From NCBI GenBank assembly GCA_000091205.1, contig AP006501.2: a DNA stretch of 64,000 nucleotides. The stretch is one strand, 5' to 3'. Shown here piece after piece: positions 1 to 56,345 of this stretch. The position numbers and the translations under genes are program-made. Source of the DNA: Cyanidioschyzon merolae (Eukaryota). The first letter of the stretch is position 1, and each line of letters starts with the position of its first letter. The notes under the pieces are model-generated. The model had not been told where the DNA came from. It did not search any database and saw only the letters and a list, made by a program, of their open reading frames with translations.

Positions 1-2331
1 AAGGACGAGGTTGCCGACGATGCCGTTCGGGCACACGTGAGTGCAACGTGGCGCAGCGCTGCACTTTCGCGGGGTAGCGCAAGTGCCTGGCGGGACCTGA
101 AACTGTTTTTAGACGAGCACGTCGCACCGGAGCTACCCAAGATGTTCCGTTTGATCGGACAGCATTGGCTGACCCCGAAAACTGCCTGGTTGTGGTCCGT
201 GGTAAGCAGCTGGCGGGCAATCGCCTGAAAAGATGCGAGTTTCGAGCTGCGAGGCAAAAGCTGCGGCAAATTAGACTCGAAGTCACGACCTTAGGATGGC
301 TTTCTTGGGCTCGTGTTATGAGACGTACGCGCTGTGGCACTGAGACTGAACTGGACAAAGTAGAACCAACTGCGCTACTACATCCAATGATTTCAGTTCG
401 CCGTGGTCTACGTCTGCACCCCATAGCGTCGGGGGTTCGTTGCACCTGCGGCGCGTGCGTTTGTTTGTGCTCGCTTGCGTACGCTCTTTTTCACTAACCG
501 TTTCAGCATGGTGTCACTTGTATTGTGCAACTTGATTGGATTTGCACCTTTTTGGACAGGTACGGCCTCGGTGCGCACCTTGTTGCGCAGATGGGATGCT
601 TGCTTCATGACGTCAGTGCTATGATCCCTTGTCGTGAGGTACAGATGCGCATGAAGCGATAGCGCCCTTTGGCGGGTGCACGGTTGGTGTGCCGGAATGT
701 GCACTCATCTGGTCAGCGTAAATTTATCATGCGGCATGCTTGCACCCAAGTCGACGTATACACGGACGAGCACGACCTTGCCTCAGTTATTTTTGGGGTA
801 CGGAGTAGGGCGCTGCATGATCGTGTAGACGAACCGGGGGATTCCCGATTGCGCCATGGTTATCGGTATCCGCGAAAGCGTTCATCATTCTGCACGGGAC
901 CGCCGCGTTTCAGGAGCCAATGCCGATAACTTCTTTTCGGAATTAGGGTTTGTTCGTCCAATTTTCCTGGTGCCGAGCGCCTGCCGTGTGCGCCCACTAT
1001 GTTGCCACTAGCGTCGATATGGTTATCGCATGGCAACGGAGCGGCTTTTCCATACCATGATTGAAGAAAGCTCGAGGCATGAGCCTGCTTGTACACGCCC
1101 GCGGGCTCGCGGAACGCGTCCCTCACGGACGACTCGGATATGCACTGGCACCGGAGCTGGTGTATTTGCAGCTGCATACCCAATCGATGCTCTTTCGCCT
1201 ACGAGCTGGTGCGTCACATAAAAAGCAAACGAAATTACTAGGTACCGTCATATCTTCGGGACGGCACAGCGTTGCAGGTTGGTCGAGCAGTCGCCCAAAC
1301 TTTGGTGTGAGGCGACGCGGGTCGACGGACAACATAATGGTAACGTCCGACATGCTGCGGTTCCTGGAGGGTTTCGCCGTTTTCCTGGACGGCGTAACAG
1401 GGAGCACTCGTGATTCAAGCTGACACCGAGACAGCGGCCCCACGCGGTCACTTTTAGACGTCCATGGTAAGTGCCATAAAACAGTGCGAGGCTCTCACGC
1501 AGATCCGTGTCGATGATGCTACCAGATACGTTTGCTCATCAGCTTGGCCGCTCTTTCCGACGTTTCCGTGGCCGTATCCACCTATTCGATGTCCATTGGC
1601 AAGCACATTTGGTCATAGAGCACTCGCTAGCAAACAGCATAGCACAGCACTGCAGATCCTCGGCAGTTCTTGGAGCACCGCTCACACCGGTGACGCATCG
1701 CGAGTGCGCACCGCATCCTGTGCCTCGTGCTGAACTAGGTCCGTTTGATCGCATGGCATTCGCGAAAGACGCATGCAGATGGTGTGTATCGCGTTTGGCA
1801 GAGGGCTATGTTATTCAAACCAGTGAACCTGAAACAGTCTGTCATTGAGATGTTTATCGACAAACGCGTGGATGCGGCATCCTATCGTTCGCGGAGCGTC
1901 CTGTCATAGTGCCAGCGAAGAGTCGGAACTCTTACGCGAGCAGAGCTGCATTCGTTTTATTTTGCAAGCAGCCCCGGTCCGTGCAGCTGCTTGCATTCTT
2001 CCGCAGATTTACATCCATCAAGGAGCGTCAAATCGTTCCTGCTAAAGCGCACAGAAACGTCGCGCGAAAGCATGTATCCGAGGATGTCGGGTGACTCCAA
2101 CGGCGAACAAGATCCCAGCCATTGCCGCCTACGATACGATTTGGGTAAGGCGCTTATGGAAACAGGTCGGGCCGATGCAGCCCATTTATGCACAGGCACT
2201 TGCTCTTCGTTGTGTTGACCTATAGTGCAGTCCACTGCTATTGCAATGTTCATGCACACATGCTCCAGATTATCTACCGAAATCATGGGGGTAGGCCGCA
2301 GCGTAGTCTCCAGAAAGCTCATGGAACAGTT

Positions 2332-3456
2332 TCATGGATGAATAGTATCTTTGAATTCAAAGAACGAGTCATGCATGCGAATGAAAGAGTACTCCTCGCA
2401 TGACCCACAACACCCGTATAAATTAGGTTCTTTGTGAAAGATAGCGAACCCGGCGTGCATAAAACCTTGGAAAAACTCATCCACTTCTGGGATAGAGGCG
2501 ATACCCGCGTGCACTTCGATAAGGACTTGATTCACGTGCCGCAGCGCGTGCCAGGTTCTCAAGGCATATTGCTCTTCAGAGCTGAGTTCACGTTGGCTCC
2601 GTCCTTGGCGAAGGAGCTTGTCGGCTGCCCGGAACGCTCCCAAGAAAGAGGTGAACTCACCACCCTCGATATCGATCTTGAGCACCTCGACGACGTTTGG
2701 CAGCTCCAGGTGACCCAATCCAGACATGATCTCCGCCAGCGAATTGTTGCTCTCAGCCGGGCCAAGCGGCCGGCGAAAAAAACGAACGCGTTCCAGAAAG
2801 CTCTCGGAGTGCATCGCAGATGGTGGCGATGATGTTGGGTCAAAGACGAAAAAATCGCAGTCCGGCAAGCGTTCATGAAGCTTCGTTTCGAAACTGAAAT
2901 CGTTGTTGCTACCAAAACTGTACACAATGCAGCGATACGGGAGCCTGAGCTGCTCACGAAACAGCCGTCCCCGGTTCAGGATAGCAGGTGGGTCGCACAC
3001 CCATTTGCCACCGTCTCCGTTGTTACCGATCCGTTCCTCTAAGGCACAGCCGATATCCGGTTCCCAGTTATTGTAGAAAAAAACCGACGGGTTCGGTTCG
3101 AGGGTAACGGTCTGGCGCTTTCGCTGACGTCGTAACCGAATCCTCCGTTGGGCCCAGAGCGCGTCCGACTCGCACCAGAAGCCGAGCGACTCTTTCAGTG
3201 CTCGCGTGTCCTTCGAAGTCACTGGTAGGGTCCGGTCCCAAATCTCCGTCAGGGTTTTCGCGTTGCGCAAAGAGCTCCCACGACGAAGAGCCCTCGACAC
3301 GGAGCGAACGCAGCTGTCATCCACGGCGGGAAGATCCGCGCGCTGGACACCACTAGAGCGTCCGTTGAGAACACTAGTAGCGCGGTATATTACGATAAGA
3401 GCATAAATAAGAAAAGTCAAAGCCCCTGAAGCGATGCACGGTTTTCGCCACGTCAT
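2332..3456 (-). CDS. FkbM-family (Methyltransf_21) methyltransferase domain protein, likely a type II membrane protein
   Basis: The 454-aa ORF 2332..3696 contains YRCIVYSFGSNNDFSFE...DCDFFVFDP...VLKIDIEGGEF, typical of FkbM-type SAM methyltransferases. The first ~52 codons of the ORF are read-through from the Fanzor element terminus and share ELYEKK with the copy-B Fanzor C-terminus. The true start is probably the ATG at 3456, MTWRKPCIASGALTFLIYALIVIYRA, which looks like a signal anchor. Confidence 0.5.
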   Translation of the reverse strand: MTWRKPCIASGALTFLIYALIVIYRATSVLNGRSSGVQRADLPAVDDSCVRSVSRALRRGSSLRNAKTLTEIWDRTLPVTSKDTRALKESLGFWCESDALWAQRRIRLRRQRKRQTVTLEPNPSVFFYNNWEPDIGCALEERIGNNGDGGKWVCDPPAILNRGRLFREQLRLPYRCIVYSFGSNNDFSFETKLHERLPDCDFFVFDPTSSPPSAMHSESFLERVRFFRRPLGPAESNNSLAEIMSGLGHLELPNVVEVLKIDIEGGEFTSFLGAFRAADKLLRQGRSQRELSSEEQYALRTWHALRHVNQVLIEVHAGIASIPEVDEFFQGFMHAGFAIFHKEPNLYGCCGSCEEYSFIRMHDSFFEFKDTIHP

Positions 3457-3540
3457 GCCGGCCACTGAAAACAAACGTCTTTCAAAAGAAAAACGCTGCC
3501 GCCAACGGTGTACAGTAGTTACGGGAAACGCGCCGTAAGC

Positions 3541-6500
3541 AAATCGTCTCCAGCTGAGGTGCAGACGCATCCCCGTCTTTTTCGACCGTCCACCTACTAC
3601 GTCTTTCATTTTCTTCTCATATAATTCCACTTTGAGAGGTCGCCCCACAGGTTCTCTCGTGTCGAATCTGGAGGTCTTTTCTCCAGCACCGCACATCTCC
3701 TGATATTGATAGCGACATTAAAGTCTCGGTTCACAAACTCCATGCGTTTCTTGCCATCTTTGGTTGTGCTTACTAATGCAAGTAGCCCACGAACTTTCGC
3801 CCTCCTTTCCATTTGCTCCTCCGTCAGCGGTCCGTACTTTGCTATTTCGTCAGGGCTCCTCTGGCACTTTTCCATCTCGATCCTTTGAAGTGTACAACAC
3901 AGTTCATGGTGTGTATACGATGTTCGGAACTCATCTACAGGTATTGTAACTAACCTGTCTGCACACCCCTTGTACGTTCTTGTCGTTGGAGCTCGTGTAC
4001 ACTCTTTTTCAGACGCCTAGCGCCCTGCTCCGTATGCTACTACCAGCCTTTGACTTTCATCCTCTTTGAAGGCACTCAGCTGACTGAAAAAGTTCGCGAA
4101 CGCACACTGCTTGCCACCGTATAGATTCATACGCAATCGAGGCCACCGGGGCTTTGTATACTCTTTCCACAGTGCCTCCTAATGAGCAATACGAACTTTC
4201 ATGAACTCCCGAAAAGCTTGAAAATCTGCTCCGCGGCTCGTCACCTCGCTCAAAGCTTCCAGGTGCTCTTTCATTCCTGCATTGCATGTCTCGTTTTTCT
4301 TCCTCGTATTCATCACACCGGATTCTCGATAGTATCTCGCTCTCGGGAACCTCAAAAGACGCATGTCTTTCTGAATGAAGTTGCCGTCTGGACCATATTC
4401 CGCACGCCTGGGTACAGCGATGGCTGTGACATTCGTATTCCCAGGGTCCGCGCCAACGACAAAGTCGTTATACTTCCTTTTCTGTGTGGCACAATCCGCC
4501 TCCTTCTCATCTTCATACCTCGTCACGTCAACGACAACGTCGTCATCCTCTACCTCTTGCGTAGCAGGATCCGCGTCTTTGTTTTCCTCATCCTTCGTGA
4601 CGGGCGCAGCCGAGGACGGAACTGGCCGAGCTGCCTTCAACCGCCGATAGTCTACACACTAGGCTACTCCATCGGTTTCGATCATCCCCGTGAATACCTT
4701 TTGCTTGCTCGTTTTGAGACGTTTGAAATCGAAGATGTTCTTCCAGTACGTCTCCCTGGTTTCACGGGTGAACTCTCTTTTCCTAAAGTTGAACTCCGGA
4801 CTGATTTCCCTCATGATGCCGTAAAGGACGCCGGAGTCGATAGTCACATAATGTGACTTGATGTTGCACAACGGAACGACGTTGAAGCGCTTCCCCATTA
4901 GGAAAGCCTTCTGTCTCTCCCACTCTTCATTCTTGTCCTCACTCGGCTTCATCTCCGCCTTGCGTTCGAGTTCACGGTCCAGAAACACGAAATAGCGCAG
5001 GATGAGGCGATAATGTCTTTCCTTATCTTTTTTCAACTCTGATACCTTTGCTGCTTGATTCGCCAGCCCCAGTACCGCACGGTGCTCTTGTATAGGCGCA
5101 CGGATTACAGAAGCTTCATTCGTGCTCCTGTGTGACGTCTTCTCATCAACGAATTCGATCTCATCTTCATGCTTGCGATCGTTCGTGATGCCATCGATAA
5201 TCGCCCATATTCCTTTGCGAGAGATGCCCGGATAGAGTGCAAACACCGCGCGTATGATGAAACGTTGGAGCTTCATGGTCATATGGTTCCTCAAGTTCGT
5301 GACGTACGTTTTCATCGCCCCGTAGGTGTAAACACTCGAGTCACCCCTGTATCGAGCACCGCCGAAGCGGGATTCGGTGTGGTTTTCGTGGAGGGCATGC
5401 ACTAGCTCATTTTGCTTCCGCGTTTCCGCTGTACCAAGCATCAGATGGCGAATAAAAGTCTTGTCGAATAATTCTTTCCGAACTTCGACTGTTTAGATGT
5501 CCGTCACGTCGCGATACATCCTCTTCACCAAATGCATGAGTCCTGAAGAGGCCTTTACAATACTCAAGGAGTACGACTCGTCATGGGTTCTGATAGCCTC
5601 CCGCACTTTTTCCCTGTACGGATCCTTGATATGTCCAAGAATACAGACTTTCACTACTGTCTCGTCGTACTGTCGTCTTTCTTGCAGCCATTGGCGTCGG
5701 GCTTCCATCTTTTGCTTCTTGGCCCTCTCCAGTTCCTGTGGACTCGGCACTGTTTTTCGGTTTTTTTTCTGGAAACCGGCGACACACTGGGCCTCCGGCA
5801 TCCTCCACTTCCACTTACGTACATTTCCTTTTTATTTTTTTGAAAAAGGAACCCCCTTTGACTGCTTCTTCTATGAACCGCGAACAATGACTTGAATACA
5901 CTCTCTTGAGAGTTGAAACACAACGGAATCGAAAAAATATACTTTGCTACGGCTTCAGAGCGAATACTACTCGTACATTAGAGCAGAATGCTAACGATCA
6001 GGATCGCGTTTCACTTCAACGGCGAGAAGCACGTCATGTATCATGCCCGCCAGATATGGAGATACGCGCATCGACCATGCTACACAAAAAAGGAAGAGAA
6101 ACTAGCAGTTCAATTGCAACGAGATAACGATTTCTTCTCCCTCTATGATACATATTAAAAGGGAGGCAAGATTTCCATGTAGTCGAAACTTTACTTTCCG
6201 GGCGGAAGGCCCTGCGAGCCGGACGAGTCTGCTAGACCAGTCCTTCATGATCTTCCCAGTGCTCAGTGCTGTGGTGATATTCGAGCAACTCGACCGAAAC
6301 GCAGTTTATTCTCGGGCCGGGGACGGGTATGCTGCGTCTGGGCATCGCGCTGGTCGCAGTGGACTCCTACAAAGTCGTTTCGCGCCACACTACACTGTAC
6401 CTCTGTCTGCGCAGAGTGCATGCTCCCAGGATGATATTGAATCCCGACCACGTTTCAGGTGAAGCTTTCCTCGATCCGAATCCCTCAGTGGTATGGCAAA

Positions 6501-6588
6501 GCCGCTCTGCCTCTATGATGCATCGGCATCAGCCGTATAAGCGCTTTTGCTGGAGGTCAAAGCGGGCACTCGGCGCACTTTAGTACTC
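3541..6588 (-). mobile_element. Fanzor1-bearing mobile element, copy A, degenerate
   Basis: DNA and protein-level repeat of 26688..29645. The right 1.76 kb (4826..6588) is about 99% identical to copy B, and the remainder is about 80% identical. No TIRs or TSD are recognisable by eye. Confidence 0.75.
3606..5801 (-). pseudogene. Fanzor1 / TnpB-like RuvC nuclease, disrupted copy
   Basis: ORF fragments are 3606..3875 ([21 protein letters not shown], RuvC-III), 4179..4640 ([18 protein letters not shown], RuvC-I), 4659..5441 and 5493..5801. The 3876..4178 segment is frame-broken relative to copy B. A premature TAG follows ...IETDGVA, and the stop codon at the element end is lost, so the ORF reads into host sequence. 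Confidence 0.7.
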
Positions 6589-6794
6589 ACAAAACGATCC
6601 GTATATCCGAGAGGAAGTAAGCGTCATGGAACTTGAGGATAGGGTGCATCATGATGGACACTTTTTCGATTATTAATCCACATCCCGCAATTTGCGATCC
6701 AAGTACAATCTGAGCGTTTTGTCAAACCGAAAAGAAATCACCATGGCTGCAGACGCCCCCGGCGTGCTCACGAGTTGTTCAGCTCAGCGCCTCT

Positions 6795-24792: not shown

Positions 24793-25659
24793 TGGATATG
24801 AGTATAATGGCCAACTCGAGTGGCGAGCTGTGCATCCATGTGGCGGTGAACGAGTCCCGAAACGGTCGCTTGCTGAATACAGTCTACCTGTGGTCGACTT
24901 GTGCGCTGTTTCGGGCGCTTCGCAGAGTAGTCTCTGCTTATGCGTGCTCTGTCGGTCCGCCAATGCGGCTCGCGTCGAAGAGGGTATACAGCTGCTGAAA
25001 ATGTTCACCACGGTCGGTGTTCAGAAGTCTCTGCTTGTGCGTGCTCTGTCGGTCCGCCAATGCGGCTCGCGTCGAAGAGGGTGTACAGCTATTGGAAATG
25101 CTCGCCTCGGTCGGTGTTCAAAGCATCTGCGAGGAGGCCCTGCTGCCGTCCCAAGCGCAACAAATGCCCCAGTTCCGATCGTAGGAGCCATCCCGTCGCA
25201 GGTGCGCTGGTTTCACGCTCATTGACTGTTTTGACGGCGACGCGCTGGCGTGCAGCACTTGGTGACCCATGGGACGCTTCCAGACATCCGCGGTTCCGTT
25301 CAGCGCTTGCCTTTACGCCGTCCTGGTTCAACGGGAACGTCAGTCATCTCGAAACGGCAGCGTGTACCTACTCTGGTTTTAGGCTTCACGAGCGTGGATG
25401 AGCGGCTCACTAGTCGCTGCCTTGTCCCTAATGCGTCAGCATTCCACTTCCACGTGTCGAGCGTAGCACGTTAGGGTCTCCCTATCGCTAACTCGAAGCT
25501 GGTCCCCGGAAGCAGCTCTCTCCAACAGAGCCGCATCCCAGCTGAGGAATCAGCGCAACAGTTACAGCGACCAGGCGTTCACAACTCACTGTGCTCTGGG
25601 GGACTGCAGAACACGCAAGTCCATGGAATACTCTGGTTAATGGCGTGCAATCAAGATCA

Positions 25660-26559: not shown

Positions 26560-26669
26560 TTGAAGCCATGAGCCCTTTTCGACCTTTCGTTGGTCTGTTC
26601 GGTAGTGGCAGCCGCCAAACTACGCTCTGATGTCGGGCGTCGCCACCAGCGGTGTAGAATAGTGGCGAG

Positions 26670-26880
26670 AAAGTCGACCCAGAAAAATCGTTTCTAGCTG
26701 TCGTGCAGACGCCTCCCCGTCCTTCTCGACCGGCCACGTACTACTGGTTCCATTTTTTTTCATATAGTTCCGCTTTGAGAGGTTGTCCAAGAAAAAGCTC
26801 TCGTGTCCACTCTGAAGGTCTTCTTTCCATCACCGCACATGTCCTTATATTGATAGCGGCATTAAAATCTCGGTTCACAA
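26670..26880 (-). ncRNA. Predicted omega RNA (guide RNA) locus of the Fanzor element. This is a positional inference only
   Basis: In TnpB and Fanzor systems the guide RNA overlaps the 3' end of the nuclease ORF and runs through the element end, with the guide from flanking DNA. Here the ORF stop at 26741 is 53 bp inside the element end at 26688. The 3' region is among the better-conserved parts between copies A and B. Confidence 0.2.
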
Positions 26881-29645
26881 ACTCCATACGTTTCTTGCCA
26901 TTGACTGTACTTAATAATGCGAGTAGTCCTCGAACATTCGCCCACCTTTCCATATGCTCCTCCGTCAGCGGTCCGTACTTTGCTATTTCGTCAGGGCTCC
27001 TCTGGCACTTTTCCATCTCGATCCTTTGAAGTGTACAACACAGTACATGGTGTGTATACGATGTTCGGAACTCATCTACAGGTACTATGACAAAACGTCG
27101 TGCGTACTCCTTATACGTTCTCGTCGTTGGAGCTGGTGTACACCCTTTTTGGGTCTTCGAGCGCGCTGCTCCGTACGCCACTACGAGCCTCTGACATTGA
27201 TCCTCTTTGAGGGCACTCAACCCATTGAAAAAATTCGCGAACGCCCGTTGCCTCCCACAATATAGATTCATACACAGACGAGCCCACCGAGGCTTTGTAT
27301 ATTCATTCCGCAGCGCATCCCAATGAGCAACACGAACATTCATGAATTTCAGAAAAGCTGTAAAGTCCGCTCCGCGGCTCGTCACCTCGCTCAAAGCTTC
27401 TACGTGATCCTTCATTCCTGCATTCCATGTCTCAATTTTCTTCGTTGCATTCATGATTCCCGATTCTCGATAGAATCTTGCTCTCGAGAACCTCAAAAGT
27501 CGCATGTCTTTCTGAAGCAAGTTACCGTCCTTACCATCTTCGGCACGCTTGGGTACAGCGATGGTTATGATATTTGTGTTTCCGGGGTCCGCGCCAACGA
27601 CAAAGTCTATCTCATGCACTTTCAGTGCCGCAGGATCCGCGTCTCTGTTTTCCTCATGCTTCGTCATGGGCGAAGCCGAAGGCACGATAGGAAGAAACGC
27701 CTCCAAGCGCTTGCAGTCTACACACAGGGCTACTCCATCGGTTTCGATCATCCCCGTGAATACCTTTTGCCTGCTAACTTTTGAGACGTCTGAAATCGAA
27801 GAGACTCTTCCAGTACGTGTCAGGGGCTTCGCCGGTGAACTCTGTCCGCCTTCCATCGAACTCCGGACAGATCCCCTTCATGATGCCATGAAGGACGCCG
27901 GAGTCGATAGTCACATAATGTGACTTGATGTTGCACAACGGAACGACGTTGAAGCGCTTCACCGCTAGGAAAGCCTTCTGTCTTTCCCACTCTTCACTCT
28001 TGTCCTCACTCGGCTTCATCTCCGCCTTGCGTTCGAGTTCACGGTCCAGAAACACGAAATAGCGCAGGATGAGGCGATAATGTCTTTCCTTATCTTTTTT
28101 CAACTCTGATACCTTTGCTGCTTGATTCGCCAGCCCCAGTACCGCACGGTGCTCTTGTATAGGCGCACGGATTACAGAAGCTTCATTCGTGCTCCTGTGT
28201 GACTTCTTCTCATCAACGAATTCGACCTCATCTTCATGCTTGCGATCGTTCGTGATGCCATCGATAATCGCCCATATTCCTTTGCGAGAGATGCCCGGAT
28301 AGAGTGCAAACACCGCGCGTATGATGAAACGTTGGAGCTTCATGGTCATATGGTTCCTCAAGTTCGTGACGTACGTTTTCATCGCCCCGTAGGTGTAAAC
28401 ACTCGAGTCACCCCTGTATCGAGCACCGCCGAAGCGGGATTCGGTGTGATTTTCGTGGAGGGCGTGCACTAGCTCATCTTGCTTCCGCGTTTCCGCTGTA
28501 CCAAGCATCAGATGGCGAATAAAAGTCTTGTCGAATAATTCTTTCCGAACTTCGACTGTTTAGATGTCCGTCACGTCGCGATACATCCTCTTCACCAAAT
28601 GCATGAGTCCTGAAGAGGCCTTTACAATACTCAAGGAGTACGACTCGTCATGGGTTCTGATAGCCTCCCGCACTTTTTCCCTGTACGGATCCTTGATATG
28701 TCCAAGAATACAGACTTTCACTTCTGTCTCGTCGTACTGTCGTCTTTCTTGCAGCCATTGGCGTCGGGCTTCCATCTTTTGCTTCTTGGCCCTCTCCAGT
28801 TCCTGTGGACTCGGCACTGTTTTTCGGTTTTTTTTTTCTGGAAACCGGCGACACACTGGGCCTCCGGCATCCTCCACTTCCACTTACGTACATTTCCTTT
28901 TTATTTTTTGAAAAAGGAACCCCCTTTGACTGCTTCTTCTATGAACCGCGAACAATGACTTGAATACACTCTCTTGAGAGTTGAAACACAACGGAATCGA
29001 AAAAATATACTTTGCTACGGCTTCAGAGCGAATACTACTCGTACATTAGAGCAGAATGCTAACGATCAGGATCGCGTTTCACTTCAACGGCGAGAAGCAC
29101 GTCATGTATCATGCCCGCCAGATATGGAGGTACGCGCATCGACCATGCTACACAAAAAAGGAAGAGGAACTAGCAGTTCAATTGCAACGAGATAACGATT
29201 TCTTCTCCCTCTATGATACATATTAAAAGGGAGGCAAGATTTCCATGTAGTCGAAACTTTACTTTCCGGGCGGAAGGCCCTGCGAGCCGGACGAGTCTGC
29301 TAGACCAGTCCTTCATGATCTTCCCAGTGCTCAGTGCTGTGGTGATATTCGAGCAACTCGACCGAAACGCAGTTTATTCTCGGGCCGGGGACGGGTATGC
29401 TGCGTCTGGGCATCGCGCTGGTCGCAGTGGACTCCTACAAAGTCGTTTCGCGCCACACTACACTGTACCTCTGTCTGCGCAGAGTGCATGCTCCCAGGAT
29501 GATATGGAATCCCGACCACGTTTCAGGTGAAGCTTTCCTCGATCCGAATCCCTCAGTGGTATGGCAAAGCCGCTCTGCCTCTATGATGCATCGGCATCAG
29601 CCGTATAAGCGCTTTTGCTGGAGGTCAAAGCGGGCACTCGGCGCC
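26688..29645 (-). mobile_element. Fanzor1-bearing mobile element, copy B, near intact
   Basis: ~2.96 kb repeat of copy A, inserted between the LRR gene and fabG. The Fanzor gene ends at 26741, 53 bp from the element terminus. There is ~750 bp of non-coding sequence 5' of the gene. No transposase ORF, TIRs or TSD were identified. Confidence 0.75.
26741..28883 (-). CDS. Fanzor1-like RNA-guided endonuclease candidate (eukaryotic TnpB homologue, RuvC-like)
   Basis: Three same-strand ORFs: 28883..28560 (basic, NLS-like, KKNRK...[12 protein letters not shown]), 28508..27774, and 27856..26741. Motifs present are [15 protein letters not shown] (RuvC-I Asp), [22 protein letters not shown]...C (TnpB motif flanking a degenerate zinc finger) and [19 protein letters not shown] (RuvC-III Asp). 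No canonical RuvC-II Glu lies upstream of the zinc finger, as in Fanzor1. The frame is broken by a 1-bp insertion near 27778 relative to copy A, and by an in-frame TAA at 28560. Confidence 0.75.
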
Positions 29646-29710
29646 CGATAGAATATACAAAAAGACTAGTACGTCCGAAAGGAGGTACCTTTCATGGAAC
29701 AAAAACGTAG

Positions 29711-30859
<1,149 letters not shown>

Positions 30860-33683: not shown

Positions 33684-35184
33684 TATCCACGTGTAGCTTT
33701 ACGTGCTATTTCGATACGCTTGACACGAGTTTCAGATAAGATATACGCACAACAGAGCGCGTGTGTTGGAGAATCCACGCGCAGTGGCGAGCGCACGTTT
33801 CACGTTCCCGGGAGCGTTCATGAATCGCTACGCACACAGGCGCCTCCCAGTGTTTTCGAACCTGTCGCTTGTTCGCGCTTTCTGTTCATCCAGGCACAGT
33901 TTGAGCCTGAGAGACTGCCCCACAAAGTTGGATTGCATCAGCTTATTAGGTCCCGTGTCTTCAACATCACATATCGTCTGATATTGATACAGTCTCGGTT
34001 GGTGAACTCCTCGCGTTTGCAGCCTCTGGTTGAACCTAACTTTGCAGGGACTCCTCGAAGTTGTGGCCTCGATGCCGTCCAAGTCTCGTTTGCATCCCGT
34101 TGGGCAAACGCTTTTCATCGTCTGTCTCCCCTCTTCTCCGTCTTGTTCTTCCTATTCGTTAATCGCTCTTCTTTATTCGATGGTCGGTGAGAGAGGATTT
34201 TTTCGGTTTTTTTCCAGCAGCCGGCGATGGCATCCCTGCGGGATCTCCGACTACCACGTCCATGCTTCTCCCCTGGATTCTTTTTCTTCAAATGAGCGCA
34301 CTTCAAATGCATCAGCTACAAACCGCGAACATGCATTCGATGACAAGCACCTGGGTGTGAAACACAACTGAGATGAAAGACCACAAGGAGTATGCTCCTC
34401 ATTTGGCAATAGAGAGCTTGCCTTGGAACGCGAGTTGTCCCCGCAACGCCGTTCGTATTACCTGCCGTGTTGGGCTTACTGTTGAACGAGGCTTTTGTGC
34501 ATTCGTTGCGCAACTCGCGAGTGAGCAAACGCTGTCTAGCTGCCCGCTGCTATGACGCTGGTTTGGAGCTCGCTCACTCGTGCGATCAAGCAAGACCTAT
34601 CTCGGGGGAGAGTCTTGTGCACCAGGTGCGTCTCTGTAGCGGCGGACGAACGCAGCTGTGGAGAGAGCCTCGCGTGCTCTCCGAGGCGGGGTACACTCTG
34701 GACTATGGACAGGTGCCTCCGACGTTGCCGGGAGCGCAATCTTTTGGCCTCTTTTCGTGGGACGAGTGCCGCTGCATTGAAACATTCGCTCTCTCAGCTG
34801 TGGAAAGCGTGCGCACACCAGCGTTACAGCGGTACGCGTGTCGTCAAACGGAGCTGCAGCTGCGGTGTGGACTACCCGGACGAGCGGCCTACCACTGACG
34901 TGCAGCACGCGAGCACCACAGAAACTTTGCAGTTGGCGGAGACAACAAGGCATGGGACTGGCGCATGTGCGGCTCTGGTGCACCAGCGAATACCGCCATA
35001 CGAAGCTAGTTATTCGGCATTGGCGGCCAGGTATGCCGAGCGGGCTCCTACTCTAGGCAGCGACTTGACGCCGGCAACTCGAGTGCTCCAGTTTCGATCA
35101 GCGCGTAAGCATGACCGGCGGTTAGAAACGCGACGTTACCTGGAGCACTTTACCAGGGGCTTTGCAGATGCACGCGTTTCTCCT

Positions 35185-38981: not shown

Positions 38982-40349
38982 TCAGCACACACGAGATGAT
39001 GGTGCACTGCTTTTGGAAGGGCAAAGAACACAAGCAATGCGCTCGAATGCAACTTGTAGCGTTTGCGTATCCTCAACTGCCGAGAAGCAACATCTATACC
39101 ACCCGGGTTCAGGAGCATGGCAAACACGACCCGGATAGATCAACACTCGCGCTTCTCGAAAGAGTCGCTCAGCAAGTTCCAACTCCGCTTCCCAGGTCGC
39201 CTCGCGAAGAAATCTCTGCAAGCCAATCCATACGAAGAATCCAGCCTGGCTGGGATAGATGCGCACCTGCTCTGCCCCAAGACTGGTTTGAATCGCTTGA
39301 ACAGCCACCTGATACGCTTCCTCTAGTCGTCGTTGGTTTGCGACGAAAAACTTGTGCAACCATTGCTCGTCACTCAGCATTCGGCAAAGCACTGCCTGCG
39401 TATCCCGACTGGGCGACGAAAACAAACACGGTGCTCGAATCGCCTGCAACAGAGCCTGGTTCTCCGTAAAGAGAACCCCACATCGCATGCCACTCATACA
39501 GAGGTCCTTACTAAACGTCCATACGACATGCACATCGTTGCCGAGACCCTGGACGGCCAAAACGTCCGCTACGGAACGAAAACGCCCCGCATGGCTCTGG
39601 AAGACCGAGAGCGCGTACGCCTCGTCGCTCACCAGGTGCATGCCATGGGATCGACACCATTGAATGGAAAGCTCTAGTTCTTCTGTCGATAGAATATTGC
39701 CCGTTGGATTCCCGGGACTGTGCAGGAGCAACACTCGCGGTCGTTGCCCGCTCGCTCTACAGGTCCGGTCCGCAGTTTCAAGCGCATCCCTTGTCAGACG
39801 GTGGTGGTTATGGAGCGCTGTTTGTACAGGTACGGGTATGCACTTTGCACGGCAGCTCAGGTCAAAGTCAAATCCCGGATAATACGGTGCCGGAATCAAC
39901 ACGGCATCACCATCGTCACACAGGGCACTGAATACCAGGTCAAGTACAGCGCTTGCACCAACGGCACACAGGTAGTTATCGGGGTTGGCTGCACTTGCTG
40001 GGCCGCCTTTCGAAGCTGCAAATATATGCTCTCGAAAGAGTTGGCTAAGTGCCTTGCGAAAGCGTAACTCGCCGAACATGTAGTCGTACTGAAGGCACTC
40101 GTTGCGCGGCAATACGTCGCTGCGTTCCCGCTGAAACTGGGCTAAGACGGGTCCCGCACTGAGCGCGTTCTCGGCCACCAGCAGTGAGATATAACCATTA
40201 GGTTTTAATTGTGGATCGTATGCGTCCTGTTTCGCTGTAAAGGACCACTCAATCTGGCGTGGCGGTGCACGACTCGCAAGCGCCCTCCCCCGGTCTGAAA
40301 GCGTCTCTGCTGCGCTTTTCAGCACGCTACTCGTCTCTGGTTGTTGCAT
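38982..40349 (-). CDS. ACC-synthase-like PLP-dependent aminotransferase (class I/II)
   Basis: LVAENALS...IPAPYYPGFDFDL...LLLHSPGNPTGNILS...VVWTFSKDLCMSGMRCG (PLP lysine in SKD). The ORF is open to 40463. The ATG at 40349 (MQQPET...) is the first start after the minisatellite. Confidence 0.65.
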   Translation of the reverse strand: MQQPETSSVLKSAAETLSDRGRALASRAPPRQIEWSFTAKQDAYDPQLKPNGYISLLVAENALSAGPVLAQFQRERSDVLPRNECLQYDYMFGELRFRKALSQLFREHIFAASKGGPASAANPDNYLCAVGASAVLDLVFSALCDDGDAVLIPAPYYPGFDFDLSCRAKCIPVPVQTALHNHHRLTRDALETADRTCRASGQRPRVLLLHSPGNPTGNILSTEELELSIQWCRSHGMHLVSDEAYALSVFQSHAGRFRSVADVLAVQGLGNDVHVVWTFSKDLCMSGMRCGVLFTENQALLQAIRAPCLFSSPSRDTQAVLCRMLSDEQWLHKFFVANQRRLEEAYQVAVQAIQTSLGAEQVRIYPSQAGFFVWIGLQRFLREATWEAELELAERLFREARVLIYPGRVCHAPEPGWYRCCFSAVEDTQTLQVAFERIACVLCPSKSSAPSSRVC

Positions 40350-40544
40350 GCAGACACGTATACTTCGCTGTTGCTGCTGGGACGTAGCTGAACAGAGCAG
40401 CCGATCCCGACACTGAGCGCGAACGAACAAAGCTTCTCGGTAAACACCAGACTGGAGGAACATCCAGACTCGGCATCTCGAAGCGGTGGATCACTGCGGC
40501 CGACACTACGGCATTCTCCCGAGACGCTTCCATTGCGGTATCGA

Positions 40545-41255
40545 GTACGCTGATGAAGCGGGGAACTTGGCGACTGAGACAAAGTCTTCAACGTAGAAGC
40601 CTCATGGTGCAAGGATCGGGTGTATAAAGGTACGAGATACTGCGAACTTGGCGACTGAGGCACAGTCTTCAACGTAGAAGCCTCATGGTGCAAGGATCGG
40701 GTGTATAGAGGTACGAGATACTGCGAACTTGGCGACTGAGGCACAGTCTTCAACGTAGAAGCCTCATGGTGCAAGGGTCGGGTGTATAGAGGTACGAGAT
40801 ACTGCGAACTTGGCGACTGAGGCACAGTCTTCAACGAAGAAGCCTCATGGTGCAAGGATCGGGTGTATAAAGGTACGAGATACTGCGAACTTGGCGACTG
40901 AGGCACAGTCTTCAACGAAGAAGCCTCATGGTGCAAGGATCGGGTGTATAAAGGTACGAGATACTGCGAACTTGGTGACTGAGACACAGTCTTCAACGAA
41001 GAAGCCTCATGGTGCAAGGATCGGGTGTATAAAGGTACGAGATACTGCGAACTTGGCGACTGAGACAAAGTCTTCAACGTAGAAGCCTCATGGTGCAAGG
41101 ATCGGGTGTATAGAGGTACGAGATACTGCGAACTTGGCGACTGAGGCACAGTCTTCAACGAAGAAGCCTCATGGTGCAAGGATCGGGTGTATAAAGGTAC
41201 GAGATACTGCGAACTTGGCGACTGAGACAAAGTCTTCAACGTAGAAGCCTCATGG
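40545..41255. repeat. 81-bp minisatellite, about 8.7 tandem copies
   Basis: Unit gaacttggcgactgag(a/g)ca(a/c)agtcttcaacg(t/a)agaagcctcatggtgcaaggatcgggtgtata(a/g)aggtacgagatactgc recurs every 81 bp from 40563. The period is divisible by 3, which yields the artefactual 306-aa repeat ORF 40319..41239. Confidence 0.9.
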
Positions 41256-41602
41256 TATATGCATGATATCTAAATCCAACGATACATAAACTAGACCCGC
41301 GCACGCAAACTGCTTGTACGTGACTGTTGCCCCCGGAGAGCAACTGCATACCCTGCCGAGTCCTCGTTGACTTGAAGCAGCGAAAGCGACTGCTTTCGCT
41401 ACTTCCATACCACATCGCTACAGCGCTATCCGCTCGTGAACGCTTTCCGTATGCACCACCGCTCTTGCTCGGGTTGTTCCCGGTACTGCTTCACCTAGAG
41501 CAGGTCCAGTGCACGCACGTGTTTGTTGCCGCAAACTTGTTTACGTTCTTGTTGGTTCTCATGTTCCACATCATGGGTTTTCTTCTGGGCTACCACTTTC
41601 GT

Positions 41603-53816: not shown

Positions 53817-54883
53817 GGTGACGACTGGAGCGATCATTCGCTGCCGTCGCTGCTGCAGCTGATTTTTTACCTCTGACGAGGGGTTTCTATTGTATTTGGA
53901 ATCGCGTATTGCGGGATGGATATTACGATTTATGTAAGTGTTCATCAGGATGCTGAACTTCAAGTTCCATGACAGATACTTCCTTGCGGATGTACTGGTC
54001 GTTTCGGACGTTCTATCATGAGTCTAGTGCCTGCAGTACGCATACGCGTTAGCGCCGAGACCGCTGGAGCGGATATTTCATAGAGCCCGAACGGCTTTGC
54101 CATACGACTGGGGCGGGGGGTGTTGGCCCAAGGCATGATTCACTGGACATCGGGGTCGGAGCGTAGAATCATTCTGGGAGCGTGCAAGCTGTGCAGACGC
54201 ACTGCCTGTGGCAGCAGCGCGAAGCGATATACAAGGAGTACACTGCGACCAGGGCGATGCCCAGACGCTGGCTAACTGCTCGAAATCCCAGAATAAGCGG
54301 CGTTTCTGACGAGTTGCCCAGGTCTCAATAAAGCTCCTGCAACTGGGGGCCTGAAGCACAAGCCTGGCAGGCTCGTGCGACTCGCGGGACCTTACGTCCA
54401 GAAGGTAAACTCTCGACGATACGGAAACCTTTGCCCCCTTTTATCGTTTGTCGTAGAGGGGCAAAGAAAATGTTATCTCGCTACTAGTTTGTAACTAGTC
54501 TCTGTCCTTTTGGGTATATCATGCGCTCGATACGCGCACCTCCATATCTGGCAGTCACAAGACCTGACGTGTATCGCGCCGATGAAGGGAAACGCGATCC
54601 TGATCATGAGCGTGTAGCTCCAACGTACAGGACGCATTTGCGTTGAGGTCATGCGAAAGTATAGTATTTCATCCCAGATGAGTTTCGACCCTCAATGGAG
54701 TGTATTCAAGTGATTTTTCGCGGTTTATAGTAGTAGCGTTCAAAGAGCATTCTTTTCCAAAAACAAAAAATCCAAGGGACAGGTATCGACCTGGATGTTG
54801 GGAATCCTTAAGGGCCATCATCGTCGAATTCGACGAAGAATAACCGAAGAAGAAATCCTCTTTTCGTCGACTATCGAGCGAAC

Positions 54884-55138
54884 ATGAGCGAACGATGCGG
54901 ACGAAGAAGACCGAGAATGGATGTAGGCGAGAAAGTGTGTGCCCGACGAGACGATGACGAGACTGTAGTGGCACAGAGGGCGCGGGTTCTGGGAATCCTT
55001 GGAAAATTGCGTTCAGCCAGAGGCAATAAACGTATGGTGCTCGTGAACCGAGACTTTAACGCCGTCATCAATATCAGACGATGGGCGGTGCTGAAGACGA
55101 GACACGAGGAGCTTACGCGATCTAGCTTTGTGGAGTAG
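54884..55138 (+). pseudogene. Solo relic of Fanzor/TnpB C-terminus (RuvC-III region)
   Basis: ETVVAQRARVLGILGKLRSARGNKRMVLVNRDFNAVINIRRWAVLKTRHEEL aligns with copy [47 protein letters not shown]. The antisense reading TALKSRFTSTIRLLP matches antisense ORFs in copies A and B. No upstream nuclease domains remain. Confidence 0.6.
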
Positions 55139-56125
55139 CCTCTCATGGGCGATGTGTACAGGGAGAAGCTGAAACCGATAGCAGGTCGCCTGTGTAGATA
55201 GGCTGGGAGGCGTCTGCACGTGGGTGTCAGTTTACGATCTCGAGGCGACGCCTCCAGTGGTGCGGAAAGGCCGTTCTGTCTGCGCTAATGCGAGACGCGT
55301 GGTGGTTACCTGGGCCCTGCTTTTCCCTTATAGGCTATTACGTGAGCCCTTGGGCACCTTCAGCACAGAAACGTTTCCAGTCTGCAACGTGGCGGGATAA
55401 GCGAGTCGAGCTCGGAGCGCTCCGTGTACAATCACGCTGTCTCCTTTCGCAAGTTACGATGCGTACCTGTTTCGCGGCTGGATTTTTGGCACCAAAAGCG
55501 CTGTAGGTACCGGGTTCAGGTACAGTTCCATCTCGCCAGATGCTGTTGGTGTCGAAGGATCGGCTTCAGGAGGAGGTAAGCGTCCGGCATTGCGTACCAA
55601 GAGGTCTGCGACGAGGCGTTCATCGCGCAGTTCGTCGCATCAGCAGGCGGGCACTGCTTGTAATCGACTGCCTGAGCGCTTCATTGAGACGATTCATAAA
55701 AGCCATCGTCGCCTTCAGATATCACTCTGAGAACTGTTTGGACGCTGCAGAACGATTCTCGGGATGCGCGAAACATGCCCAGAGTCGGCACCTGGCATGG
55801 GGTAGGGTCCTGGTCTGTTGTGGTGTAGGATCCTTAAATCTAACCAGGTTTCTGGCGATGCGCATCCGCTTCTGATGACCACGAAAGAGGCCTCGTTCGC
55901 TTCACTAGCGCATGTGTGTGTTCGGCAAGTCCCAGTCAAAATGCCCAACAGGTATAGAGGCTTGCTCATTCCAAAGGAACAGCGGTTATCGAGTCTACAG
56001 TGGGCGCTCGCGCCACCGCGGGCTCATTCTCACACGCTCACCGCAGAGGTTCGTTTCCTAACGAGCAACTCGCGCGTCTGCAGGCGCATTCTCCAACGAG
56101 ATGCCGACCCTGAAAACGTATATTT

Positions 56126-56345
56126 CGCTGTATTCCAAGTCTGGAATCATCCGAGGCACTAGATGCGAAGGCAGCCGGTTTCGGGAAGTGCTCGTCCCAG
56201 TCTGATACCGGAAATCCCGCTGTATTCCAGGTCTGGAATCATCCGAGGCACTAGATGCGAAGGCATCCGGTTTCGGGAAGTGGTAGTGCCTCCATCCGAT
56301 CGTATATCTCGTTGTACCCCAGGTCTGTAATCATCCAGATCACGA
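56126..56345. repeat. 92-bp tandem repeat, ~2.4 copies
   Basis: cgctgtattcca(a/g)gtctggaatcatccgaggcactagatgcgaaggca(g/t)ccggtttcgggaagtg repeats at 56126 and 56218, with a degenerate third partial unit at 56310. Confidence 0.7.

Follow-up and report, generated by a model that had tools for sequence, protein, structure and literature searches.

The 64,000-nucleotide stretch of Cyanidioschyzon merolae contig AP006501.2 (assembly GCA_000091205.1), the whole of which is called the window here, carries on its minus strand a repeat, copy B, with the interrupted gene of a Fanzor1 protein, a eukaryotic homolog of the TnpB RNA-guided endonucleases. An earlier reading of the DNA, made without database searches and called here the sequence-only reading, had placed a Fanzor1-type TnpB homolog on a ~3 kb multicopy element at this locus, and this identification is supported by the family profile, the fold and the catalytic residues. 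The region is best explained, with a probability of about 0.93, as a dead copy of CMe-1A, a Fanzor1-bearing repeat family of C. merolae. The parts of copy B are the following; the three same-strand open reading frames (ORFs) are exactly those from which the sequence-only reading had assembled its protein.

26612..29809 (approximate ends), minus strand: copy B, CMe-1A-type element, ~3.2 kb
26741..28870, minus strand: Fanzor1 pseudogene, with its ATG at 28870 and its TAG at 26743..26741; reconstructed protein of ~710 aa
28883..28560, minus strand: ORF 1, 107 aa
28508..27774, minus strand: ORF 2, 244 aa
27856..26741, minus strand: ORF 3, 371 aa
28871..29809, minus strand: 5' non-coding region, ~940 nt, which recurs in copy C and in fragments that have no ORF
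26612..26752, minus strand: 3' tail, candidate ωRNA scaffold from the consensus fold of the tail alignment
26622..26640, minus strand: position of a subterminal 3' hairpin, degenerate in copy B and conserved in other copies
26592..26611, minus strand: flank immediately 3' of the element, the guide segment if the tail is an ωRNA

Relationship of the gene to Fanzor1

Pfam scans of the three ORFs, the reconstruction and relatives gave only a sub-threshold Cas12f1-like_TNB match (E 0.1-0.4) located at the RuvC-III motif, and phmmer of the reconstructed copy B protein against the PDB returned nothing relevant. A word-indexed protein search yielded 42 close relatives of 55-83% identity, all of them from JGI metagenomes; an uninterrupted relative of 752 aa on a eukaryote-like contig, P0001, is 69% identical to the reconstruction over 676 aligned residues. 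A shallow profile of the close relatives, searched against the PDB with hmmsearch, likewise gave nothing relevant, and an AlphaFold run on that shallow alignment reached a pLDDT of only 38.7. Among 1.84 billion cluster representatives searched exhaustively with HMMER, 1,518 match the family at E<=1e-3 and 291 at E<=1e-30; many are 600-750 aa long, and one is a protein of the green alga Tetrabaena socialis. The alignment of P0001 with 68 representatives that are 27-39% identical to it (A3, 69 sequences) is the basis of the family-wide results below.

The hmmsearch comparison of the A3 profile with all PDB sequences matched three distinct sequences, all of them Fanzor1: those of Parasitella parasitica (PpFz1, 9cf0; E 2.2e-21), Spizellomyces punctatus (SpuFz1, 8gkh; E 4.3e-13) and Guillardia theta (GtFz1, 9cer; E 3.6e-8). 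The motifs FTGxIETDG, DPG, DE(F/Y)(R/K)TS and NRD are in register in the alignments with them, and in the same search no solved TnpB chain came within E 10.

The fold leads to the same assignment. An AlphaFold2 model of P0001 made with A3 has a mean pLDDT of 81.9 and a pTM of 0.80, its only long disordered stretch being residues 385-470, and it shows a long helical N-terminal half followed by a RuvC domain with a TNB insert, as in Fanzor1. When this model was compared with the PDB by Foldseek, ranks 1-7 were all Fanzor1 chains, of SpuFz, PpFz or GtFz: four SpuFz chains at E 1e-16 to 6e-16 with target-normalised TM of 0.72-0.74, and PpFz and GtFz chains at E 9e-16 to 6e-14 with target-normalised TM of 0.48-0.56. 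Cas12b, other Cas12 types and Fanzor2 come next, at E >= 3e-4, and the Fanzor2 match reaches only E 0.024 over 277 columns. The sequence-only reading had named a profile search and a structural superposition as tests that could refute it, and it passes both.

All motifs quoted by the sequence-only reading and its basic N-terminal stretch are present, at 27604..27551, 27091..27053, 26878..26843 and 28841..28758 in the direction of translation. The protein features of copy B are, from the N-terminus:

28758..28841, minus strand: basic stretch resembling a nuclear localization signal, read from sequence
27731..27760, minus strand: motif found just upstream of RuvC-I in Fanzor1, aligning to FQGTLETDGV of PpFz1 and FEGSITTDGA of SpuFz1
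27551..27604, minus strand: RuvC-I motif with the Fanzor-type DPG (GADPG); Asp codon 27589..27587 (GAC), D432
27053..27091, minus strand: VDEFRTS motif with the alternative RuvC-II Glu (Ealt); Glu codon 27073..27071 (GAG), E604
26891..27055, minus strand: TNB-equivalent insert without zinc-coordinating Cys pairs, with H and L at the first CxxC and GLLALLST in the place of the second pair
26843..26878, minus strand: RuvC-III motif (NRD); Asp codon 26869..26867 (GAT), D672

Mapping of P0001 onto the reconstruction shows that D432, E604 and D672 are all kept in copy B. The RuvC-I Asp aligns to its counterparts in the DPG/DPN of PpFz1 and SpuFz1, and a catalytic Asp within DPG is the published Fanzor RuvC-I signature (Yoon et al. 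2023, PMC10711439); within DPG, A3 shows no variation of the Asp and Gly and next to none of the Pro. The Glu of VDEFRTS aligns to DEFRTS of PpFz1 and DEYKTS of SpuFz1 and is invariant in 69/69 sequences. Its catalytic role is assigned from the descriptions of an "alternative" Fanzor Glu on the loop directly before the TNB, six residues ahead of the zinc finger (PMC10711439, PMC11423790), and the lack of a canonical upstream RuvC-II Glu, to which the sequence-only reading had drawn attention, is consistent with these published signatures. The RuvC-III Asp aligns to the NRD Asp of SpuFz1, the published Fanzor residue D606 (PMC11423790); in the NRDxNAAxNI motif of A3 the Arg, Asn and Asn are invariant and the Asp of NRD is nearly invariant.

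The Cys cluster had been called degenerate, and correctly, as Cys pairs are missing from it. Of the aligned clade members 0/69 have two such pairs in the segment from the Glu to the RuvC-III Asp, which indicates that the degenerate cluster is common to all sampled members of the clade and not a result of decay in copy B. A C4 zinc finger is carried by "many", not all, Fanzors (Yoon et al., PMC10711439), and it is treated here as frequent but not strictly defining since Bao and Jurka list the C. merolae protein as Fanzor1.

Compared with the solved systems, the C. merolae protein has its best structural match in SpuFz1 (PDB 8GKH, 9CEU-9CEZ; E ~1e-16, target-normalised TM 0.73), the gene of which likewise lies at the 3' end of a multicopy element with ORF-less relatives (PMC10432273). 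The two proteins are only ~15% identical in sequence, the TNB of SpuFz1 has CxxC...CxxxxC that the C. merolae protein lacks, and the Spu-1 elements have 30-nt inverted repeats, unlike the C. merolae element. PpFz1 (PDB 9CF0-9CF3) is the best sequence-profile match and is among the top fold matches, but differs in having an extra RuvC insertion domain (PMC11423790). GtFz1 (PDB 9CER-9CET), also among the top fold matches, has Asn as its third catalytic residue (PMC11423790), whereas the C. merolae protein keeps the Asp of NRD. With TnpB of ISDra2 and the IS200/IS605 group and with OMEGA systems the element shares a RuvC nuclease with a TNB insert, a gene beside the right end, a structured RNA at the 3' end (a candidate here), ends without terminal inverted repeats and a subterminal hairpin. 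TnpB, however, has a length of ~400 aa, a DΦG motif and, ~50 residues ahead of the zinc finger, a canonical Glu (PMC10711439), as against ~710 aa, DPG and Ealt here, and TnpB of the IS200/IS605 and IS607 types is often accompanied by TnpA, of which the C. merolae element has none.

A further difference from SpuFz1 is a variable acidic tandem repeat of 25 aa (75 nt; ...KHEE.K.A.PATQKVQDNDLVVDA...) directly upstream of the RuvC-I Asp. Copy B has one unit (27589..27666) and copy A two (4179..4640), and at least four are found in the metagenome locus L001 (L001:11149-11449), in P0001 and in P0015. The repeat region is the disordered one in the AlphaFold2 model of P0001 (residues 385-470).

The repeat, its copies and its surroundings

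BLASTN of the region against the window finds three copies of the repeat, A, B and C, so that the two further occurrences reported by the sequence-only reading are confirmed. With the two 5'-region relics listed here, the 64-kb window is unusually rich in the CMe-1A-type family.

3468..6738, minus strand: copy A, paralogous and near full length (BLASTN alignment 3498..6752, with the ends then refined)
53848..55245, plus strand: copy C, internally deleted and ~67% identical, in the segments 53848..54851 and 54969..55245
840..1057, plus strand: 5'-region relic of 58-64% identity, without adjoining Fanzor ORF sequence
34199..34378, minus strand: 5'-region relic of 58-64% identity, without adjoining Fanzor ORF sequence

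Copy C, in which the 5' ~1 kb is retained along with the RuvC-III region and some of the tail, is an older derivative of the element. In metagenomes 235 related stretches were counted, a number far above chance; the identity between copies is 72-83%, many of them being about 75-82% identical to one another.

The ends of copy B were mapped against ~80 metagenome copies, where alignment end points cluster at 29801..29819 and 26616..26647. In the aligned copies information content falls to zero ~8 nt past a terminal hairpin on one side and upstream of a 5' T-run on the other; at the 5' end conserved sequence begins at the T-run that precedes CGATGACAAAACGTTTACATTGACCATGG. The boundaries 26688..29645 first proposed for the element have therefore been replaced by ends at ~26612 and ~29809, position 29645 being the point at which the near-identity of copies A and B stops. 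The placement of the gene at the extreme 3' end of the element does hold: its stop codon is ~130 nt from that end and the gene thus abuts it. The ORF list shows no transposase-type second ORF and no TnpA-like ORF within the element. A search for terminal inverted repeats gave nothing convincing, and the copy alignments at both ends established neither a target-site duplication nor a clear motif in the flanks. Inspection of the 5' flanks by eye showed no clear transposon-adjacent motif, several flanks finishing in TGA ahead of the T-run. No empty (uninserted) site was found among contigs with the neighbouring methyltransferase gene, most of which break at the repeat or hold the insertion.

One of the contigs that carry the methyltransferase gene, L089, matches the window only from 6599 on, within ~140 nt of the extreme 5' end of copy A, and upstream of the 6598/6599 junction its sequence (L089:1-646) is unrelated to the element or to the window. 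Such a junction could reflect a chimeric assembly, a rearrangement or another insertion.

The 5' non-coding region (28871..29809) probably corresponds, by its recurrence without the ORF, to a module like the second C. merolae repeat TE-N2_CMe, and the relics at 840..1057 and 34199..34378 may be old TE-N2_CMe-like fragments.

The genes that flank the element are exact nuclear genes of C. merolae 10D: eight window ORFs match within BAM82953.1-BAM82968.1, the exact protein matches including BAM82953.1, BAM82954.1, BAM82960.1, BAM82963.1-BAM82965.1 and BAM82968.1. The composition of the window, ~55% G+C, and its long intron-free ORFs are in keeping with C. merolae. At the 5' end of copy B (~29809) lies a FabG-like ORF, 29711..30859, of which the program-assigned start (29711) and the next in-frame ATG (29771) are both inside the element; the exact 382-aa product is absent from the records, so that the true start is probably further downstream, at ~29921. 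The 3' end of copy A (~3468) is 12 nt from the ATG (MTWRK..., 3456) of a downstream host ORF, 2332..3696 on the minus strand, and from this distance the program-made ORF is seen to run through the tail of the element. Several metagenome "proteins" (P0007, P0015) likewise contain translated tail sequence. Were an ωRNA made from the tail of copy A, the start of the downstream host gene would fall within its guide.

Elsewhere in the window an 81-nt tandem repeat (8.6 copies, 96% identity) at 40563..41256, which overlaps program ORFs beside an ACC-synthase-like gene (38982..40463), has no relation to the Fanzor1 element. Short tandem arrays lie at 24929..25120 and 56116..56336 (97 nt x 2.0 and 92 nt x 2.4).

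Decay, past selection and the 3' tail

Copy B needs three repairs for a full-length frame, not the single frameshift that had been counted by the sequence-only reading:

28828..28837, minus strand: lesion 1, an A10 homopolymer with 2 nt too many, against A8 in copy A and in the orthologue L002
28560..28562, minus strand: lesion 2, an in-frame TAA common to copies A and B and to the orthologues L002 and L003
27778, minus strand: lesion 3, a 1-nt insertion (G) that shifts the frame between ORF 2 and ORF 3; found in L002 but in neither L003 nor copy A

The two additional A residues put the ATG at 28870..28868 out of frame with the main ORF; in copy A an ORF, 5801..5493, starts at the equivalent ATG. 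At the position of the TAA, P0001 has Glu. An intron at the junction of ORF 1 and ORF 2 was considered and rejected, as the two are in the same frame with a single TAA between them and intact relatives read through with Glu. L002 and L003 are metagenome contigs that hold the orthologous insertion together with its flanks at ~98.5% identity, and because the TAA is common to both and the +1 insertion is shared with one, copy B must have been defective before these strains diverged. Judged from these lesions copy B is a long-dead pseudogene, and the suggestion that it may be active fails on the same evidence of the TAA in both orthologues and the +1 in one. Copy A is also defective: it shares the TAA, has another stop in frame after TDGVA and is broken again later on. 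Among 81 related loci that were fetched only one, L001, has a long open frame (819 codons). As its reading frame is broken three times, copy B cannot make the nuclease, and from the state of its tail it probably makes no good ωRNA.

The identity of copies A and B is a mosaic: 82% over 26642..27666, 94-99% over 27630..29645 and ~65% over 29645..29819. Differences among B, L002, L003 and A are also clustered, as in 16 sites at 27040..26982 where B equals A and L002 equals L003, and each such cluster (another is at 27778..27771) matches the paralogous copy A in one or another strain. The clustered differences and the mosaic identity point to gene conversion between dispersed CMe-1A copies.

Nucleotide diversity among 62 copies aligned over the RuvC half was 0.141 at first, 0.118 at second and 0.261 at third codon positions, compared with 0.268 in the 3' tail and 0.62 in the flank past the end of the element. 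The lower diversity at first and second codon positions indicates that the protein was under purifying selection during diversification of the family, in agreement with the 2013 remark of Bao and Jurka on long-lasting coding capacity.

The tail alignment folds into a closing helix (GCAGUAGUAGGUGG ... CCACUACUGUAC) around hairpins, followed by the terminal hairpin. Standard pairs fill 88.5% of 1,654 pair cells versus 36-56% when partners are slid by 1-3 columns, and double-sided changes number 18 versus 9.1 in shuffles, 1/500 of which reaches the observed value. RNAalifold gave no structure on a 337-column alignment, while the tail alone did fold; an Rfam scan of the tail found no family match. 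Copy B keeps 29/37 consensus pairs, having lost eight, and is near the bottom of the set. The terminal hairpin occurs in other copies in two versions, CGTTCGA-CTT-TCGAACG and CGTTTTTC-TTTT-GAAAGRCG, both of which pair, and it is followed by TTYGNTG, beyond which information content is zero. There is moderate support from these patterns for a structured RNA in the tail, at a place that fits the ωRNA position of OMEGA/Fanzor systems, and the placement of a guide in the flank likewise follows the architecture of those systems (PMC10432273).

CMe-1A, the alternatives and what the element means

CMe-1A of C. merolae was described as a family of ~150 copies, ~80% identical to their consensus and ~3 kb long, that encodes a Fanzor1 protein, lacks terminal inverted repeats, has undetermined target-site duplications, shares its 5' 635 bp with TE-N2_CMe and still includes a number of genomic copies that are intact (Bao & Jurka 2013, Mob DNA 4:12, PMC3627910). 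Copy B agrees in host, length, multicopy state, lack of terminal inverted repeats and a single Fanzor1 ORF, and the 5' region of its family also occurs without the ORF; nothing essential differs. By this match to the published description of the family, copy B is most likely one degenerate CMe-1A member. New with respect to the 2013 description are the mapped ends, the subterminal 3' hairpin, the foldable tail as a candidate ωRNA, the absence of zinc-finger Cys in the sampled clade, gene conversion and codon-level selection. No further papers on Fanzor in C. merolae were found within the searchable literature, and C. merolae has no mention in the supplementary tables of Yoon et al. 2023.

Several points weigh against the assignment or parts of it. 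A single sequence gives no Pfam or direct PDB match, so that the family profile is needed; the fold was modelled on the intact relative P0001, 69% identical, and not on copy B itself; the zinc-finger cysteines of the original 2013 Fanzor motif are absent; and the CMe-1A match is one to the published description of the family. As to the tail, its diversity is no lower than that of third codon positions and the covariation support is modest, and for both reasons selection on RNA structure is not proven.

That copy B or its family in this genome is still active, with the interruptions tolerated through readthrough, frameshifting or an intron, would be in keeping with the intact catalytic residues of copy B, the purifying selection on codon positions, the intact genomic copies reported by Bao and Jurka and the 819-codon open frame of L001. 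It is nevertheless very unlikely, because the three lesions are independent and include a TAA in an organism of standard code, a +2 homopolymer and a +1 insertion, because the TAA in both 98.5% identical orthologous loci and the +1 in one of them show that the lesions are old, because only 1/81 related loci has a long open frame, and because the Glu with which intact relatives read the junction of ORF 1 and ORF 2 speaks against an intron. A segmental duplication of a domesticated TnpB-like host gene, in place of a transposable element, is suggested by the 94-99% identity of A and B over ~2 kb and by the failure to find terminal inverted repeats and target-site duplications, yet this too is extremely improbable: similarity stops sharply at both ends and the flanks are unrelated, at least 235 copies lie in unrelated contexts, internally deleted and fragmentary copies occur, nearly all copies are pseudogenes, and the high identity of A and B is regional and best explained by gene conversion.

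Nor is there much to be said for a prokaryotic TnpB of IS200/IS605 or IS607 type, or for a Fanzor2, that arrived by contamination or recent transfer. The weak Pfam match to Cas12f1-like_TNB at the RuvC-III motif could be read this way, and ends without terminal inverted repeats together with a subterminal hairpin do recall IS200/IS605. The flanking genes, however, match nuclear genes of C. merolae exactly; in the protein DPG and an alternative Glu stand in place of DΦG and a canonical Glu (PMC10711439); at ~710 aa with a long helical N-terminal half it is Fanzor1-like; profile matches in the PDB are to Fanzor1 only; Fanzor2 appears in the fold search only at E 0.024 over 277 columns; and no TnpA-like ORF is within the element. 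The chance that this origin is the right one is accordingly minute, and a dead Fanzor1-bearing CMe-1A copy is retained as the explanation of the locus.

How an intact CMe-1A element would act can be sketched by homology to solved and tested Fanzor1 systems. It would make one protein, a Fanzor1 RNA-guided DNA endonuclease with the RuvC triad D (DPG), E (VDEFRTS) and D (NRD). An ωRNA would be produced from the 3' end, comprising about the last 140 nt after the stop codon, possibly with the end of the ORF, as a multi-helix scaffold, and would continue into flanking DNA so that the flank supplies the guide. The ribonucleoprotein would then cut guide-matching DNA beside a short transposon-adjacent motif, a cleavage that may aid the persistence or homing of the element. 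For its mobility the element would have to rely on another enzyme that acts on the ends without inverted repeats and on the conserved subterminal 3' hairpin. For the C. merolae family ωRNA expression, RNA-guided cleavage, the adjacent motif and the biological role are thus presumed by analogy.

As a discovery the locus is minor, as the CMe-1A Fanzor1 has been catalogued since 2013, the demonstration of Fanzor activity dates from 2023 and copy B is by its lesions a pseudogene. It does show that a reader of sequence can recognise a Fanzor1 from its motifs even though Pfam and PDB searches with the single sequence miss it. Compact genome editors that tolerate heat might be sought among the intact relatives from thermoacidophilic red algae. 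A tentative wider reading, which may well not hold, is that the 1,518 representatives are a large Fanzor1 subclade without the zinc-coordinating TNB Cys (69/69 full-length representatives examined), missed by motif or regex Fanzor surveys and by Pfam, in which the C. merolae family has been under purifying selection and has a hairpin-ended multi-helix 3' RNA; its intact members of the L001 type, if active, would then be zinc-independent RNA-guided nucleases from an alga of 42-45 °C and pH 2.

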